Source of the DNA: an uncultured virus (IMG/VR IMGVR_UViG_3300013121_000021) | Lineage: Duplodnaviria > Heunggongvirae > Uroviricota > Caudoviricetes | DNA: 64,000 nt | Strand: one strand, 5' to 3' | IMG/VR virus record: IMGVR_UViG_3300013121_000021 | Shown here: one piece after another, positions 11,017 to 33,565 of the stretch | Layout: the number at the start of each line of letters is the position of its first letter | Position numbering within the stretch: position 1 is the stretch's first letter | Translations under genes and position numbers: made by a program | The notes under the pieces: model-generated | What the model saw: the letters and a program-made list of their open reading frames with translations, nothing else | The model's database searches: none | Told to the model about the DNA's origin: nothing

Positions 11017-11929
11017 TTAAAAAAATTCTGGGAATGGTATATGCGTAAAATCATCAGACTTATTATCTTTATCTTCTCGTATAATTGGTAAATCAAATCT
11101 ACTTATTTCACTATCACTAAAATAATCTGCTATATTAACTTGTTTATTTTTCGATTCAATATTTATAATATTTTGAATTAGATCTTCTTGATCCTTTAAA
11201 AATTTTTCACTATTAACGCTAATTTGAGGTTCAATTTCAAATTGCCTATCTTTTTTAACTAATGCGCAAAAACAAGATGCCATGAATAAATCATCATGTT
11301 GGCCTTTTTGAGCGGCAACTCGGCCCATTGAATCTTTTTCAATAATACTTAATTGAGAAATTAATTCACCAGAATGTAATAAAGTAGGATCTGTTGTTAT
11401 TTCATCATAAAATAATGCAACCATTTTATCTTTTGATTTTTGACTTGTATATATTCCATATGGTTTTTCTACTTTACTATTCTTTTTTTGTTCTTCTTTA
11501 TATAAAAATTGCATATAATCAAACTCATTATCATTTTCTAAAGATTCAACTATAGCAATTCCCATTGAATTATTTTCTATTCCAACAATAAACTTTTTAC
11601 CAACTTGTTTATATAGAAATTTAATAACTTCTTTAACTACTTCTGAAAATTTAGTTAAAGACCCAATTCTTGAAATAAATTCTGCTGTTTGTTCAAAATT
11701 TGTATATTGAAATATTTCAATAGCGCATAAATCACCAACTAAACTACGTGCAGTATCAACTCCAACCAAATAAAAATCATTTGGATCGAAGTTTTTATAT
11801 ACTTTTAACTTACACATATGAGGTAAATTAAAAGTATCGATAGGTTTACTTGGTCGTAATTGTGTTAAATATTCATCAGTAAATATACAATTTGAACCTG
11901 CTACGAACATTAAATCTAATTCTTGATTT
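11017..11929 (-). CDS. terL: Terminase large subunit, exon 3 (RNase H-like nuclease domain)
   Basis: YLVGVDTARS, IENNSMG and GQHDDLFMA nuclease motifs; joins exon 2 in frame to give RRV-NQELDLMF. Confidence 0.9.
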
Positions 11930-12256
11930 CATTTATGTTCAATAAGGATCGCTACTCCTTATCCGGGATTTTACCCAGCTTATAGTTACCTATAAGATCA
12001 GACTATCTCTTTATCTATTAATAATTTATATATTTAATTATTTTTGGAACTATAAATATAATAAATAAATTTATTATAAGTTGAATTATTATATATCTTA
12101 ATAATAGATATTTCATATTTCCACTCGCTTGAGTGTACTTCCAAAAGGAATAGTCGTTACACTTATTTTTATTTGTAAATAAAAATAAGCTCGGTATTGT
12201 GTTATATAACAGTTTCACCGAATTAATAAAATTTTAGAAGAGCTATTATTATATTA
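11930..12256 (-). mobile_element. Group I intron (327 nt, no homing ORF) in terL
   Basis: Exon GAAGGGU pairs with IGS GCUCUUC (U-G wobble); core AAUUCGGU..AAUACCGAG, GUAACGACUA..GAGAUAGUC; terminal G; removal restores the frame. Confidence 0.9.
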
Positions 12257-12515
12257 ACCCTTCGAGAATCAAAATTTAATTCTCTAACTTGTTCTCTATA
12301 CCAATTATCATCATATATTTCAGACCAATGAAACTTAACTGAAACAAATCCATTAGTAGAAGGATCATTAATATAATGAAGATGATTATTAACCAATTTT
12401 TCTTCTTCATCATATATTTCATCTGAACCTACAGATTTATTCCACATATCATAAAAAAACTTCCCTGTTCCTTCTACCCCATTAGGGGTAGATGTCATTA
12501 AAAGAAGTGTTGGAT
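12257..12515 (-). CDS. terL: Terminase large subunit, exon 2
   Basis: Spliced reading KHG-Y-PTLLLMTSTPNG gives the terminase coupling motif (TSTPNG). Confidence 0.9.
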
Positions 12516-13803
12516 CAAATAAAAAATTTATAATTTCTTATAAAATTAGACTATATCTTAATTTTATTCTGAATATCTAAAATTTGTAAATTATTCTCTT
12601 TTAAAAATAATTCACTTTCATAATAAAATAATTTTTGACGTATGATTTTATTAATAGTGCTAATATCTTTATTATATTTTTCGGCTAATTCTTGTCTAGA
12701 ATATATTCCTGTTAAAATATCAGAAAATAATTGATTAATAAATTTATATTTACTTCCATGAAAATATAAAAATTCTATATAATAAAGTTCAACACCTAAT
12801 TCCTCACAAACAATATTACTTATTTCGGATTTAAATTTTCCTCTAACTAAATCATGGATACTTTGATATGAACATTCATATGTTAAAAGTATTTCTGTTT
12901 TATGAGTATAATTTAAAATATCAATAAATAACTGTTTAATTTCTTCATAATTGAATTTTGATTTTAAATTCAATTTAAATTTTAATTTACAATGATTTAA
13001 AAATCTATCTCTTAAACTTGATAATTTCAATTTCTTCTGTATTAAAATATAATCAACATCTCTTCTCCACAATATACCTTTTAAAATATAACGTATAGAA
13101 GTTTTTGAAATTGAATACTTTATTTCTAAATCATCAATAGAATTAAAATTTAATTTTTCAATATCATCAATAAAATTATTTAATTTTTCTTTAGATAATT
13201 TAGATGATGATATCATTTCACCATACGCCTGTCGATTCTTTTTAAGTTTATCTTTAATATTATCTAATGTTGTTCCTAATTGTAAATGAATAGGATTTAC
13301 ACAATTTGGTATATCACATTTATGCATGATAATATGATTTGTTGGGTCGATATTATATGCTAAATAATAAGATACTCTATGGGCACCAATTGATTGCCCA
13401 TTTAATGCAAATTTTCCATATCCATCTTTATCTAAAAACCCATCAAATAACCAACATTTATCATAATCTATATTACCATCTAAAGTTTTCGGGAATATAG
13501 TTTTAGATATAAAAGAATCTATTTGTACTTTATTAATATTTAGAAATTCAGACATAAAATTTCTCCCGTTTCGAATCAACATCAATGTTAACCCTACTCC
13601 CCTAAAGGGATAGTCGTTGAACGTTCTTCATATTAATATCTATATATTAATAGATAATAACTTAGAAGCTTCGCTGCTGATTGCCCAATTCTGTTAATTT
13701 TCAAACATTTAAGCCTATCTTTTCAGATTACTTTGTAGTTTAACAGACTCTAAGGGGTTTCCAGCAATTAGAGAGATTTTACATGAGCATCATTTTGACA
13801 CTT
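12516..13803 (-). mobile_element. Group I intron (1288 nt, IA-like) in terL carrying an HNH endonuclease
   Basis: Exon CAUGGGU pairs with IGS GCUCAUG; P/Q/R/S elements AAUUGCUGGAAA, AAUCAGCAG, GUUCAACGACUA, AAGAUAUAGUC; terminal G at 12516. Confidence 0.92.
12551..13555 (-). CDS. Intron-encoded HNH homing endonuclease with C-terminal HTH-like segments
   Basis: CW..GYG..AHRVSY..MHKCDIPNCVNPIHL..GT..DN motif; ATG at 13555 has a GGGAG RBS; stop codon lies inside the intron S element. Confidence 0.88.
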   Translation of the reverse strand: MSEFLNINKVQIDSFISKTIFPKTLDGNIDYDKCWLFDGFLDKDGYGKFALNGQSIGAHRVSYYLAYNIDPTNHIIMHKCDIPNCVNPIHLQLGTTLDNIKDKLKKNRQAYGEMISSSKLSKEKLNNFIDDIEKLNFNSIDDLEIKYSISKTSIRYILKGILWRRDVDYILIQKKLKLSSLRDRFLNHCKLKFKLNLKSKFNYEEIKQLFIDILNYTHKTEILLTYECSYQSIHDLVRGKFKSEISNIVCEELGVELYYIEFLYFHGSKYKFINQLFSDILTGIYSRQELAEKYNKDISTINKIIRQKLFYYESELFLKENNLQILDIQNKIKI

Positions 13804-15358
13804 ACCCATGTTTCTTAGCCTGTATCCGGGCTTTACTTAAAATAGGTTGAGCAGCACCATATGCAGAATGAATATGATTAATAAAAGCTGTTTCATCTAC
13901 ATATAATATTGGACTTGTTAATGAACGCGCTATTTGTTCAGGCCCGGATATTGAACTAGGATAAAATACATCAACCTTACTTCCATTTTCATATTCTAAA
14001 TAGGTTTTCCTATCAGCAAGTACTTTATTAGAAATACTTGGTTTAAGAAAATCTGGAAGCATTTCATGAATAAATTTAATCCTACTTAAATTTTCTAAAG
14101 CGGCAGATTTTTTCATATTGATAATAATTGCTCTATTTTTAGGAAAAAAATTAAGCATATATTCAATAATAACTGCCGCTATAGTACTATTATGTGTAGG
14201 AATATATTCTCCTACTAAAAACATTTTGTCTTCATTATCTACTTGAATACATTTAACTGGAATAGATTCTATTTTTTCAACACTTTTTATATAATGTTTA
14301 TTATACCGAGAACCTTTTAGTGATTTTTGCCGATCTCTTTTTATTTTAACTTTAAATACATCAAAATCTTTAGTTGAAAATGATAATCCATATTTTCTAG
14401 TATAAATATTTTTATTTCTACTTAATTTATTTTTTATACCTAATGAAGACAATAACTGTTTTACATCAAATAAAAATGTTAAATTTGAATGTTTTAATTC
14501 ACATCTACCAGATGCATCGCAATATCCAGATCCATCCATTATTCCTTGTAATAATTCAATTCTATTTTGAATAGAATTCATCGAATATTCAGTGGATATT
14601 CTATTTTGAAATAATCCACTATTCTTCAAAGTATTTTCAAAATTAAAAATAGTTATATGTTTTTCTGAATTATTTTTAAATATTGGTGAAATAACTGGTT
14701 TATAATTATATTGCGATATAAATTCACATATTTCATTAACTGAATTATTGGCAACTGATATTTCAGATGTGCCATAAGTATTTGAACTTAACCATAAACC
14801 ATAAATATATGGAGGTATAGTTAAATTATTATTTTCTATATATTCTATAGGTTTAGTAACTTTAATATATTTTTCTTGAATATCAAACAATTCTTTAGTA
14901 GTTACAATTGAATCATTGTCATTTATTTTCCATAAATGATCAGTATCTGCAATTATTGGATCTGCATAATCAAAATTAATTTTATAACAATCATGATTAT
15001 ACATTATCTCAGTTATAAATTTTACATTTGTAGGTTTTCCATCGGCTCCTATTATTATATCACCAATTTTTAATTCTTCAATAGTTGTATAACTACCATC
15101 AAATAATGGAACTAATGTATCTAAAGATAAAGCTTTCCCTAATTGTCGAGAAGCCATAAAAATAACTTTATCGAATTTAATAGCAGAACGTATTACTCTC
15201 TTCAATTTGAGATGCATATGTTCTGGGGCATATTTTAAACTTCCACCAATTTCAGGAATATAAACATAATTATAAATAAAATAGAATATATTATTTTTAC
15301 ATTTAATATATTCTATAGCTTTCTGCTCTGTTGTTAAATTCGAATATTCATTAAACAT
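13804..15358 (-). CDS. terL: Terminase large subunit, exon 1 (ATPase domain, contains an intein)
   Basis: Walker A SRQLGK[intein]ST, Walker B LYVDETAF. Exon lengths give a 908-aa spliced precursor and 593 aa after intein removal. Confidence 0.9.
14189..15133 (-). mobile_element. Class 3 intein (315 aa) with LAGLIDADG-like (DOD) domain
   Basis: Starts Ala (ALSLDT), ends THN before Ser; WCT signature DHLW / VKCIQV / IPTHN; ELLQGIMDGSG motif. Confidence 0.9.
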
Positions 15359-29817: not shown

Positions 29818-30753
29818 TTATTTAAAACTAGAGTTAATATATTGTCCACGTAAATCTGTTTTAATATTTCTTGGCGAATAATGTTTGTTCACCTTTCCAC
29901 TTAAAGAATCTTTAACTTTTTGATTCATAATATTTATCCACATTGATTTTAATTGTGGATTTTCTTTAAATAAAATATCAATCATCTTCTTAAAATTTTT
30001 ATACGATTCGTCTAATTCATCACGAATTTCTTGACATCCACTTCCAGTAGGAATCGCAGATAAAGGATCGTCAGTTAAATCAACAGTAGATAAATCTTCA
30101 CCTGTTTTTTGTAAACAAATTTTATATACTTTTGTTAATTCAGCATATGCTGAAGTTAAAAAATCTAATGTACATGTAATTGCACAATCTGACTTATCAG
30201 TAGTATCAAATGTATTATAATTTGATTTTGTTCTTAAAGTTTCCCAAAATGTAGTTTTTTGTTTTACATCTATACCACATTTTTTAGCACAATTAGAATA
30301 TTCTTCATCTAACATAGAAAGAATAACTTCGTGCTGTTTTACTTTTTCTCCTAAAAATTTTACCCATTTAGCAGATAAAAATTTTTGTTTCAATGTAGAA
30401 ATTGATGAAAGGAAAGCTCGAAATGCATGACTTAAAATATTATCTTCATACATACCAATAATAATACCACCCATGAGAGCGGCTAAAGCTATCCCACCAG
30501 TTACAATTCCTAAATCTTCATTTAATAATTCTTCTTCGCAAATATTTTCATGCGAATCAAATAATCTATAAATTATTCTTTGTTGATATAATTTACTTTC
30601 TTCTAATAATTCATTATATAAAATTGGATTTGAAATTCTTACTAATTTTCTTAAATCCAATATATATTCATATAATTCATTGTATTTTTCTTTTGATAAA
30701 CTTCTATCCTTAAGATATGAGGTTGTTATATCTGATAAAAATTCATTATTCAT
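29818..30753 (-). CDS. Hypothetical membrane protein, paralog of 42616..43374
   Basis: LLNE followed by a TM segment; KKC and C..AEL..Y..L..G.D pattern shared with 42616..43374. Confidence 0.72.
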   Translation of the reverse strand: MNNEFLSDITTSYLKDRSLSKEKYNELYEYILDLRKLVRISNPILYNELLEESKLYQQRIIYRLFDSHENICEEELLNEDLGIVTGGIALAALMGGIIIGMYEDNILSHAFRAFLSSISTLKQKFLSAKWVKFLGEKVKQHEVILSMLDEEYSNCAKKCGIDVKQKTTFWETLRTKSNYNTFDTTDKSDCAITCTLDFLTSAYAELTKVYKICLQKTGEDLSTVDLTDDPLSAIPTGSGCQEIRDELDESYKNFKKMIDILFKENPQLKSMWINIMNQKVKDSLSGKVNKHYSPRNIKTDLRGQYINSSFK

Positions 30754-30789
30754 TTTTTAAATAAAAAATTTAACGTTATAATAAAATGA

Positions 30790-30915
30790 TGGACCTAATG
30801 GGAGTTGAACCCATATGAGAATGGCCGTTCAGGCTTCATTCTCATCGAGCACCAAAGATAATGATTCTGGGAATGATTACCCATTCTCTTCCGATAAATC
30901 ATTATTCGTAGGCCC
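30790..30915 (-). ncRNA. tRNA-like non-coding RNA (126 nt), non-canonical
   Basis: 7-bp acceptor stem GGGCCUA/UAGGUCC plus A; T-arm AUGGG-UUCAACU-CCCAU; interior has two long hairpins in place of the D and anticodon arms. Confidence 0.75.
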
Positions 30916-30925
30916 AAAACATTAT

Positions 30926-30939
30926 TTAATATCTATATA
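30926..30939 (-). promoter_or_regulatory. Candidate phage promoter TATATAGATATTAA
   Basis: Ends 10 nt upstream of the tRNA-like RNA; exact copies at 13633..13646 (-) and 38606..38619 (+). Confidence 0.5.
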
Positions 30940-30945
30940 AAAATA

Positions 30946-31128
30946 TTAATAATCTATATTCCATTCTATTTTTACTTTAAAAATTCCTTTTTGGAAACCA
31001 TATTCGTCTTGCGGAATATCTTTTACTAATGGATTAAATTTACTATCAAAGGCTTCAATAATATCCCTTTGAACATCGCAAATACTTTCACCATCATATT
31101 CTTTTTCAAATATAGTTTCATTCTGCAT
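30946..31128 (-). CDS. Hypothetical protein (60 aa)
   Basis: Small ORF overlapping the recA stop. Confidence 0.65.
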   Translation of the reverse strand: MQNETIFEKEYDGESICDVQRDIIEAFDSKFNPLVKDIPQDEYGFQKGIFKVKIEWNIDY

Positions 31129-31801: not shown

Positions 31802-32048
31802 CACTTTTATTCAATAAAGATCGTTACTCTTTATTCGGAATTACATCCAGCTTATAGTTACCTATAAGATTAGACTATCTCATCAACTTTATTATAGTTG
31901 CTCTGTCTTTCCGCTTACTTAAGCGTACAATTAGTCGTTACACCTTTTTGTAAAATTTACAAATTTGGCTCGGTATTAACTTTAATTAAGCTTTCTACCG
32001 AATTTACAGAGTTTTCATCTATAAATTACTTTATAGAGCCGCAATATT
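31802..32048 (-). mobile_element. Group I intron (247 nt, ORF-less) in recA/uvsX
   Basis: Exon ..CCGU pairs with GCGG; AAUUCGGU/AAUACCGAG, GUAACGACUA/GAGAUAGUC; family 3' end; terminal G; phase 0. Confidence 0.9.
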
Positions 32049-32402
32049 ACGGGCTTTAAAACCAATAACCTTATTAACATCTTCTGCTTCACTATCTTTA
32101 CTACTTGATGTTGAAGCTATTGAATCCCATACAAAAAGTAACTTAAATTCTCTATTTGTGGCTTCTTCTAAACGTTTTTTAACACTAACTAAATCTTCAA
32201 GAATATTAAATACTTGTTCAAGATTAGCTACAATAGGTTTATACATAAACCTATTATTATCAATATTAAAATCTACAATTCTTGAACTACCACCTTTATC
32301 TTGTACTGATGCTGCTGCATTTTCTATATCAAGATAAACAGCTACAGCATCTTCATTTTCTCTTAAAAATTGACTGCAAAATTGAAATGCAAAAGTCGAC
32401 TT
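32049..32402 (-). CDS. uvsX: RecA/UvsX-like recombinase, exon 2
   Basis: KST of Walker A, VYLDIENA, Walker B FVWDSIAS. Confidence 0.87.
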
Positions 32403-33382
32403 CATTTATATTCAAAAAAGTTCACTACACTTTTTCCGGAATTATATCCAGCTTATAGTTACCTATAAGATTAGACTATCTCTTCAGTTTAAAAACTGAT
32501 TTATACTTCGGCTATCAATCATTTATAGCCTACTCTACTCAAATAACTAAATTATATGGAGATGATGGATCTTGATATTGCATATTAAATTTATATTTCA
32601 TATCTTCAGGTACTAGATAGAAATATTTTTTCATTAAATTAAAGAATTTTTTAAATTCTGTTGCATTAAAATATATATAATTGTAAAATTTACCTGTGAC
32701 TTGTAAAGTTTGACCATATATTTTAACATCTAAATTCCATTTATCTTTAAATACTTTTTGAATTATTTTATGTTCATCCAATGAATAACATTGTGTAGAT
32801 AATCTAGCATGACGTTTAGAACCACGATCATCTTTATAAATACACAAAGAACCATCATCTAAATACCATAATAATAATCCAAAATCATGTAATTGATGTA
32901 ATCCATTTTCAGTAATTATTTTCTTACCGTTTTGATAAAAATCTTGCGATTCAAAAAAATCAATAATTGGTGGTTTTGCAGCAACATATGAACATAAATT
33001 TTGACCTAAAAACCCACCTTTATTTATTACATCATATTTACTATATTGATATATATTTAAATGAATATATAAATATTCTAAAAATTGAACATAATCATTT
33101 TGAAGTGAACTATGTTTATTGTGTATATATCTTGCATTCTGATATATTTTATGTCTTTGGTAATTTCCATCTCCATAAAAATTACCAAGTAAAATTTGAC
33201 ATTTCTCAAGATCAGTTAAATTATTAAACATTTTAGAGGAATTCTCCTACTTATTTTTTAGTTATTCTTTCGATAGTCGTTACACCTTCAACTATTATTT
33301 TGAATAATAGAAGCTTGGCTCGGTATTGTCCAAATTGGATATCTACCGAATTCATAAATTTTTATAGTCAAGCCAATCAATA
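32403..33382 (-). mobile_element. Group I intron (980 nt) in recA/uvsX carrying a LAGLIDADG endonuclease
   Basis: Exon GUCAGGU pairs with IGS GCUUGAC; family core and 3' end; splits Walker A STPESG|KST. Confidence 0.92.
32539..33231 (-). CDS. Intron-encoded double-motif LAGLIDADG homing endonuclease
   Basis: ILLGNFYGDG and GLLLWYLDDG motifs; AGGAG RBS. Confidence 0.88.
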   Translation of the reverse strand: MFNNLTDLEKCQILLGNFYGDGNYQRHKIYQNARYIHNKHSSLQNDYVQFLEYLYIHLNIYQYSKYDVINKGGFLGQNLCSYVAAKPPIIDFFESQDFYQNGKKIITENGLHQLHDFGLLLWYLDDGSLCIYKDDRGSKRHARLSTQCYSLDEHKIIQKVFKDKWNLDVKIYGQTLQVTGKFYNYIYFNATEFKKFFNLMKKYFYLVPEDMKYKFNMQYQDPSSPYNLVI

Positions 33383-33565
33383 ACCTGACTCGGGAGTACT
33401 AGATACACATACAGGTAAACTTGAACTTATTCCTCCACCTAATAAACAATCCAGGGTTCTAACCCCAAAAGGGGTTGAATAAGGAATGGGTGGAATAATA
33501 CCTCCAAATTTTTGAACTAAAACGGCATCAAATGCAGCTGCTAATCTTTTTGCGTCTTCAGACAT
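33383..33565 (-). CDS. uvsX: RecA/UvsX-like recombinase, exon 1
   Basis: TPFGVRTLDCLLGGGI and STPESG; spliced product 406 aa. Confidence 0.87.

Follow-up and report, generated by a model that had tools for sequence, protein, structure and literature searches.

The locus considered here raises the question of what kind of RNA has the two ends of an alanine tRNA and none of the parts with which a codon is read, and why such an RNA would be encoded between two genes of a phage. It lies in a stretch of 64,000 nucleotides of DNA from an uncultured virus of the Caudoviricetes, which was analysed as a whole and is referred to as the window. A minihelix made of acceptor stem and T-arm is enough for cleavage by RNase P, and alanyl-tRNA synthetase has no requirement for an anticodon. 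An RNA may accordingly have the outline of a tRNA substrate in its top half and something quite different in place of the rest. Here, we report the anatomy of a 126-nt tRNA-like element and relate it to tRNA-Ala, to tmRNA and to the stable RNAs of phage T4. The description that suits the element best is that of an orphan which varies the T4 species 1 design with alanine-type ends, and the explanation that we favour, a non-decoding tRNA mimic, is given about an even chance of being right.

Anatomy of the element

The element occupies positions 30790..30915 on the minus strand and has a G+C content of 0.44, against 0.25-0.28 in the surrounding DNA. Its predicted fold (ViennaRNA, -42.8 kcal/mol, z -3.43) was matched in stability by 0 of 200 dinucleotide shuffles, and the interior taken alone was still unusually stable (z -2.95, a stability reached by 2 of 300 shuffles). 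An acceptor stem, two hairpins, a linker and a T-arm are common to the minimum-free-energy and the centroid fold, and all are given below on the minus strand.

The 5' strand of the acceptor stem, GGGCCUA (RNA nt 1-7, 30909..30915), pairs over 7 bp with the 3' strand UAGGUCC (nt 119-125, 30791..30797) at probabilities of 0.85-1.0, and the U of the third pair, G3-U123, takes the position of U70 in the G3-U70 pair of tRNA. Hairpin 1 (nt 11-58, 30858..30905) consists of an outer stem of 9 bp with pair probabilities of 0.6-0.97, an internal loop and an inner stem of 6 bp capped by GUAA (30877-30880). It is separated by the 12-nt single-stranded linker CUUUGGUGCUCG (nt 59-70, 30846..30857), which is unpaired in the centroid fold, from the 31-nt hairpin 2 (nt 71-101, 30815..30845), in which 9 bp, an AA bulge and 3 bp lead to the loop UGAAC at pair probabilities of 0.91-1.0. 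The T-arm AUGGG-UUCAACU-CCCAU (nt 102-118, 30798..30814) follows hairpin 2 without any spacer and is paired at moderate probabilities (0.54-0.68). The RNA ends in a discriminator A at the A73 position (nt 126, 30790), after which UCA stands where a CCA might have been encoded.

The element has the 7-bp acceptor stem, the 5-bp T-stem and the 7-nt T-loop of a tRNA, while it lacks a D arm as well as the anticodon arm with its 7-nt loop, the interior being made up of the two hairpins and the linker. This is the anatomy that the original prediction had read from the letters (acceptor stem, G3-U70, A73, T-arm, two hairpins and no CCA), and it proved correct in every detail checked against sequence and fold. 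The accompanying statement that there was no obvious room for a tag frame is not strictly true, as a frame of 7 codons leads from the linker into hairpin 2 and ends at a UGA stop in its apical loop; ARAGORN calls no tag there. Longer open frames are also found on both strands, an ORF of 40 codons started by TTG (30795-30917) overlapping the element on the same strand and one of 41 codons on the opposite strand.

Chance, assembly and the origin of the ends

Minihelices of a loose kind are easily found in DNA of this composition. A pattern allowing any 5-bp T-stem with the loop TTCRANY, enclosed by any 7-bp stem with a spacing of 60-200 nt, occurred 0.7 times per shuffled window and at least once in 91 of 200 shuffles, and a second match to it in the real window is AT-rich and looks like chance. 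The element's T-arm is the only exact GGTTCRANTCC in the 64 kb, and the exact partner strand GGGCCUA is present about 110-111 nt upstream of the 3' acceptor strand. Generic minihelix patterns arise by chance in AT-rich DNA, whereas the specific sequence of the element does not.

The sequence type of the 3' end was traced in the JGI metagenome collection with a 22-nt pattern that covers the T-arm and the 3' acceptor strand before the discriminator and has two 2-fold positions. Among the 40 loci retrieved, ARAGORN placed a tRNA-Ala gene at that spot in 26 (with anticodons CGC, GGC and UGC), tRNA-Val in 2 and tmRNA in 1, with no call in the remaining 11. Since this pattern sits at tRNA-Ala genes in 26 of 40 loci, the 3' end of the element is of the type used by real alanine acceptors.

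Contigs of four sequencing runs from four studies of sludge and soil carry identical pieces of the element region, and one of these independent pieces spans 30741-31011, that is, the whole element and both of its junctions. No sequence variants were found across the region in the contigs of those four runs. Because identical pieces were recovered in four independent runs, the element is not an assembly artefact.

Some of the loci collected on account of the shared acceptor stem deserve mention for themselves. At a contig end in locus L068 (1732-1811), an ARAGORN-negative element of 80 nt has the same acceptor stem and T-arm, and its 5' segment resembles the start of the tmRNA in L062. Eleven bacterial MAG contigs (L204-L214), 8 of which bear Patescibacteria or candidate-phylum names, harbour a tRNA-Ala gene with the element's acceptor stem that adjoins a partial second copy, either a 5' or a 3' fragment. 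These tandem fragments may be integration scars, and as a hint to the origin of the phage minihelix they are weak and biased.

Genomic surroundings

The genome is tightly packed, and the 192 nt between two minus-strand ORFs are for the most part taken up by the element, which starts 30 nt after the stop codon upstream and ends 36 nt before the start codon downstream. The upstream ORF (30946..31128, - strand) encodes 60 aa of phrog_11659, a phage family of unknown function, and itself comes after an intron-split uvsX-like gene. The downstream ORF (29818..30753, - strand) encodes 311 aa without a family match, and a gene for a Cas4-like nuclease is likewise found downstream of the element. The neighbourhood is accordingly a recombination gene block, and no tRNA-related function was found among the neighbouring proteins. 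Tail-fibre, virion and glycosyltransferase genes are found elsewhere in the window, and the ORFs scanned gave no match to an integrase family or to the SmpB family. The phage, which comes from sludge, is large and AT-rich. By its large terminase, which has about 32% identity with its counterparts in T4-like and RaK2-like phages, it falls within the wider T4-like group.

A sigma-70-like promoter match (TTAATA, 17 nt, AATAAT; 30921..30949, - strand) has its -10 hexamer ending 6 nt before G1, and the scan found 6 such matches where 6.6 were expected, which is no more than chance in AT-rich DNA. Neither a terminator nor a better-than-chance promoter flanking the element was detected in the promoter and terminator scan, and the T4 late-promoter motif TATAAATA was not enriched in the window. 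A search of the window for antisense matches to the linker or to the loop of hairpin 2 led back to the element alone.

One gene of the window is interrupted by introns and a second appears to be. In the uvsX-like recombinase gene there are two group I introns (31851-32060 and 32452-33397, - strand), one of which scores 72.9 bits and is missing from the whole-window Rfam scan at gathering thresholds, while the other is matched in two halves of 29.7 and 25.3 bits around a LAGLIDADG endonuclease ORF (32539-33231). The large terminase gene (11017-15358, - strand) looks interrupted as well, in that a 518-aa terminase ORF and a 297-aa ORF with a weak terminase match are separated by the core of a group I intron (13562-13776) and by an ORF for an HNH endonuclease (12551-13585).

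Searches for known families and homologs

ARAGORN reported no tRNA or tmRNA gene in the 64-kb window, and Rfam at gathering thresholds gave only a group I intron elsewhere in the window and nothing at the element. At permissive thresholds (E up to 10), the sole Rfam match inside the element consisted of the 17 nt of its T-arm, aligned to positions 347-363 of the tmRNA model at 9.8 bits. The tRNA model (RF00005) has no row of its own for the element at E up to 10, overlapping matches of the same clan having been merged under the best, which was the tmRNA T-arm. The original prediction had held that a strong full-length match to a known family would remove the novelty of the element; neither ARAGORN nor Rfam returned any match beyond the T-arm.

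Searches for relatives of the element itself were equally negative. No homolog was found in reference phages, either by megablast of 3 kb or by blastn of the element, and an exact 25-mer of the element was not found in IMG/VR. A covariance model built from the single sequence (R1) found only the element itself in the window and had no match over 9 related viral records; the phage's closest IMG/VR relative, with a terminase 89% identical, is a fragment and did not match R1 either. At four loci of related phages that were collected by their neighbouring proteins (L001-L004), there was no element at the syntenic junction, as judged by direct reading, ARAGORN and the T-loop pattern. The 22-nt pattern retrieved tRNA-Ala and tmRNA genes from the JGI metagenomes and no homolog of the whole element, and local blastn of the interior against the 215 loci collected gave no match. 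Gapped patterns in IMG/VR and GTDB contigs gave no homolog either, the first gapped IMG/VR scan having yielded at least 120 matches and its results applying among the matches listed. Literature searches for a described class returned phage tmRNAs and T4 RNAs only, with no account of an element of this kind. The collection of phage homologs on which the original prediction had meant to base a covariation analysis was therefore empty in every collection searched, so that covariation speaks neither in favour of the fold nor against it.

One of the syntenic loci has a structured region of a different sort. In L001, from a 183-kb viral contig, G+C-rich nested hairpins lie at about 2890-2990, just upstream of the homolog of the 311-aa ORF, and a pseudoknot is possible there, as 10 nt of a loop are exactly complementary to a sequence about 45 nt further downstream.

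Comparison with tmRNA and tRNA-Ala

The element resembles the tRNA-like domain (TLD) of tmRNA in that it is phage-encoded, like the DS6A example below, and has an alanine-type acceptor stem with G3-U70, a discriminator A73, a T-arm and no anticodon. A genuine tmRNA (L062) has the same acceptor stem as the element and nearly the same T-arm. According to excerpts of PMC4131195, a TLD-only tmRNA is on record for Mycobacterium phage DS6A, and a molecule similar to it is reported to inhibit tmRNA, perhaps by titrating SmpB. The DS6A genome (NC_023744 28478-28560) was used as a positive control for the Rfam tmRNA model (RF00023), which scored the 83-nt RNA at 43.2 bits in an alignment over its full length, with the closing helix and the segment that follows the acceptor stem both covered. 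In the element, by contrast, the same model aligned the T-arm only, at 9.8 bits. The conserved segment that follows the acceptor stem in tmRNA is not found in the element, and where tmRNA has a helix between its inner 5' and 3' segments, the element has two local hairpins. The only candidate for such a long-range helix, nt 28-35 with nt 92-99, is 6 kcal/mol worse and has a probability of about 0. With the alignment confined to the T-arm and the closing helix at that probability, the element is not classed as a tmRNA or tmRNA domain, and the mini-tmRNA put forward in the original prediction is not supported.

The likeness to tRNA-Ala lies in an acceptor stem and T-arm of the same sequence type, as documented by the 26 of 40 loci above. 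It ends there, as the element has neither D arm nor anticodon arm, measures 126 nt as opposed to 71-76 nt, and is reported neither by ARAGORN nor by the Rfam tRNA model.

Two further viral contigs contain short RNAs of tmRNA type. The one in L100, of 129 nt, is a very short tmRNA-like RNA that the Rfam tmRNA model aligns end to end at 48.4 bits, and the one in L096, from a 341-kb contig, has a tmRNA-like start and end over 136 nt and scores only 16.7 bits.

Comparison with T4 species 1 RNA

The T4 species 1 RNA (rnaC; NC_000866 70908-71046) is a stable RNA of 139 nt from the T4 tRNA cluster. Excerpts of three publications, a review from 2010, an omics study from 2022 and a further paper from 2025 (PMC3014915, PMC9697503, PMC12685909), state the function of RNAC and RNAD as unknown. 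In its fold, a 7-bp closing stem leads straight into the T-arm. Of the two hairpins in the interior, the first is long and irregular and the second stops 1 nt short of the T-arm, with an A-rich single strand between them. This fold is backed by an alignment of 7 copies from the Tevenvirinae, with compensatory change at 22 of 44 pairs.

The two RNAs have the same parts in the same order, namely a 7-bp closing stem, a long hairpin, a single-stranded linker and a second hairpin 0-1 nt from a canonical T-arm, and both are without D arm and anticodon arm. They have no sequence similarity. The closing stem of rnaC has two U-U mismatches and no G3-U70, which is present in the element, and rnaC is located in a tRNA cluster, whereas the element lies in a recombination gene block with 0 tRNAs in 64 kb. 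A covariance model built from the 7 rnaC copies (R2) picked the element as the top match in the window (14.3 bits, E 0.11), a score that reflects only the shared top half of a tRNA, because ordinary tRNAs score the same (14.1 bits). Searches with rnaC itself gave no match outside enterobacterial-type phages. Of the analogy to the T4 species 1 and 2 RNAs raised from the start, the one with species 1 is consequently supported as regards architecture, with its rnaC order of parts, and is not supported as regards homology, given that R2 scores ordinary tRNAs equally. On the models compared here, the likeness between element and rnaC is one of design, and descent is not demonstrated.

Proposed role and rival explanations

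The explanation that we favour is that the element is real, is processed by the host and is a non-decoding tRNA mimic that can probably be charged with alanine. The chances of this being so are in our judgement about even. Of an alanine tRNA or tmRNA, the phage would have kept no more than the top half, that is, a coaxial acceptor/T-arm minihelix of 12 bp with G3-U70, A73 and a canonical T-loop, and would have replaced the D and anticodon arms by two stable hairpins and 12 nt of single strand. Such a minihelix would suffice for host RNase P to cut at G1, the 3' end would be made after A73 and CCA would then be added, upon which alanyl-tRNA synthetase would charge the RNA. The sequence allows aminoacylation, with G3-U70 and A73 in an acceptor/T minihelix of tRNA-Ala type, and the synthetase could accept it since the enzyme needs no anticodon. 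As the product could not read a codon, the RNA would act off the decoding pathway. The hairpins and linker would carry the role that is specific to this RNA, the whole forming a stable, tRNA-shaped scaffold that presents them to a partner. Alternatively, the acceptor end would itself be the active part and act as a decoy, by offering host factors the top half that they recognise in tRNA-Ala or tmRNA.

In favour of the mimic are the stable fold and exact anatomy, the alanine-type ends, the way in which the element fills its gap on the coding strand, its recovery from independent samples, the rnaC order of parts and five look-alike loci in other viral contigs. The G+C content of 0.44 in a genome of 0.25-0.28 also counts for it, because an unselected relic would be expected to lose such a difference. 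Against it, the element is an orphan without homologs and shows no sign of selection beyond its composition, the R2 match is unspecific, no tRNA cluster is near and generic minihelix patterns are common.

The same fold could serve in cis as a processing signal, in which case RNase P and RNase Z would excise it from a polycistronic transcript, the cut would separate the message of uvsX and the 60-aa ORF from the downstream genes and set their ends, and the excised RNA would have no job of its own. The t-elements of plant mitochondrial mRNAs and the tRNA punctuation of organelle messages are tRNA-like cleavage signals of this sort, and the element resembles them as a tRNA-like fold between co-oriented ORFs, 30 nt from one and 36 nt from the other, outside any tRNA cluster and without its own terminator or a better-than-chance promoter. 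It differs from t-elements in its large structured interior, for which a cleavage role has no need. Cutting requires the acceptor/T minihelix only, yet 94 nt of extra stable and G+C-rich hairpins have been kept, along with an alanine identity pair that cutting does not require either, and the syntenic loci of four related phages do without any such element at this junction. We consider a pure processing signal unlikely. The orphan state of the element could also mean that it is a relic without a function, either what is left of an integration site or a host tRNA-Ala or tmRNA gene altered by decay or rearrangement. Its ends are indeed of the same sequence type as cellular tRNA-Ala genes, and the bacterial MAG contigs retrieved commonly show tandem tRNA-Ala fragments with this acceptor (11 loci). 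For an att-type remnant the 3' part alone would do, whereas here both acceptor strands are intact and fully paired about 110 nt from each other, and no integrase family was matched in the ORFs scanned. Two well-formed hairpins with the interior z of -2.95 are not what degraded tRNA sequence looks like, and the G+C content is well above that of the genome. These features make a relic distinctly improbable.

The element might further be a mini-tmRNA or a tmRNA decoy that is charged with alanine and either enters stalled ribosomes or titrates SmpB, on the lines proposed for the DS6A RNA, possibly by use of the 7-codon frame. G3-U70, A73 and the lack of an anticodon fit this, as do the acceptor stem and T-arm of the L062 tmRNA, the sequence of a linker followed by a hairpin with a putative tag frame that stops in the apical loop, and the TLD-only phage tmRNA, to which a molecule reported to inhibit tmRNA is similar (excerpts of PMC4131195). 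The T-arm match of 9.8 bits compared with 43.2 bits for DS6A, the absence of an ARAGORN tmRNA call, the candidate closing helix at a probability of about 0 and the lack of an SmpB family match among the ORFs scanned all weigh on the opposite side and leave the suggestion very doubtful. A small protein encoded by the 40-codon frame (30795-30917, same strand), which is open across the element, is scarcely credible: the ORF starts with TTG and coincides exactly with a tRNA-type fold, and as the opposite strand is also open for 41 codons, open frames of such length mean little here. The probability beyond the mimic and these four alternatives is left for readings not considered.

To return to the non-decoding mimic, its most specific form is that the RNA is matured, provided with CCA, charged with alanine and works as an alanyl-tRNA mimic. 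It would then be a decoy for alanyl-tRNA synthetase, EF-Tu, SmpB or a tRNA-directed defence nuclease or, as the boldest option, a minimal ribosome-rescue RNA that uses the 7-codon frame. So complete a chain is a long shot, although if the ribosome-rescue reading were true the element would represent a tmRNA-like device on a different plan from every known tmRNA. The combination of a T4-type layout and a clean alanine identity set in one RNA leads to a testable idea, charging without decoding. Should charging occur, the synthetic alanine minihelix would have a natural equivalent in the element, which would also provide a handle on phage interference with tRNA-dependent host processes.

Look-alikes in other viral contigs

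Five IMG/VR loci (L215 and L217-L220), on viral contigs of 74-360 kb, keep the GGGCCUA/UAGGUCC acceptor frame of the element around a non-standard interior and with spacings of their own, and none with a spacing of 110-140 nt was found in IMG/VR. All five are ARAGORN-negative. Rfam identifies L215 and L217 as tRNAs that contain a large insert and gives no match for L218-L220. Four of the five are located beside tRNA genes or in tRNA clusters, and the element differs from most of its look-alikes in lying outside any such cluster. Together with the element, these loci in large phage contigs suggest that phages make wider use of non-decoding, tRNA-shaped RNAs than current RNA catalogues would indicate. 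As a single orphan sequence the element is a lead rather than a result, and it adds to the signs that phages have a kind of RNA not yet catalogued.

An alanine-type tRNA-like element of another layout was encountered among the matches listed in six IMG/VR contigs (L094, L124, L149, L167, L179 and L201). Over 133-134 nt, it combines four internal hairpins with a T-arm and with an acceptor stem of 7 bp that includes G3-U70, and there is one compensatory pair in the T-stem; the two copies that were scanned gave no ARAGORN or Rfam match. Finally, positions 1-348 of L215 match the GOLLD RNA at 138.2 bits (gathering score 150), the match being cut by the end of the locus and adjoining the tRNA cluster of this 360-kb viral contig.
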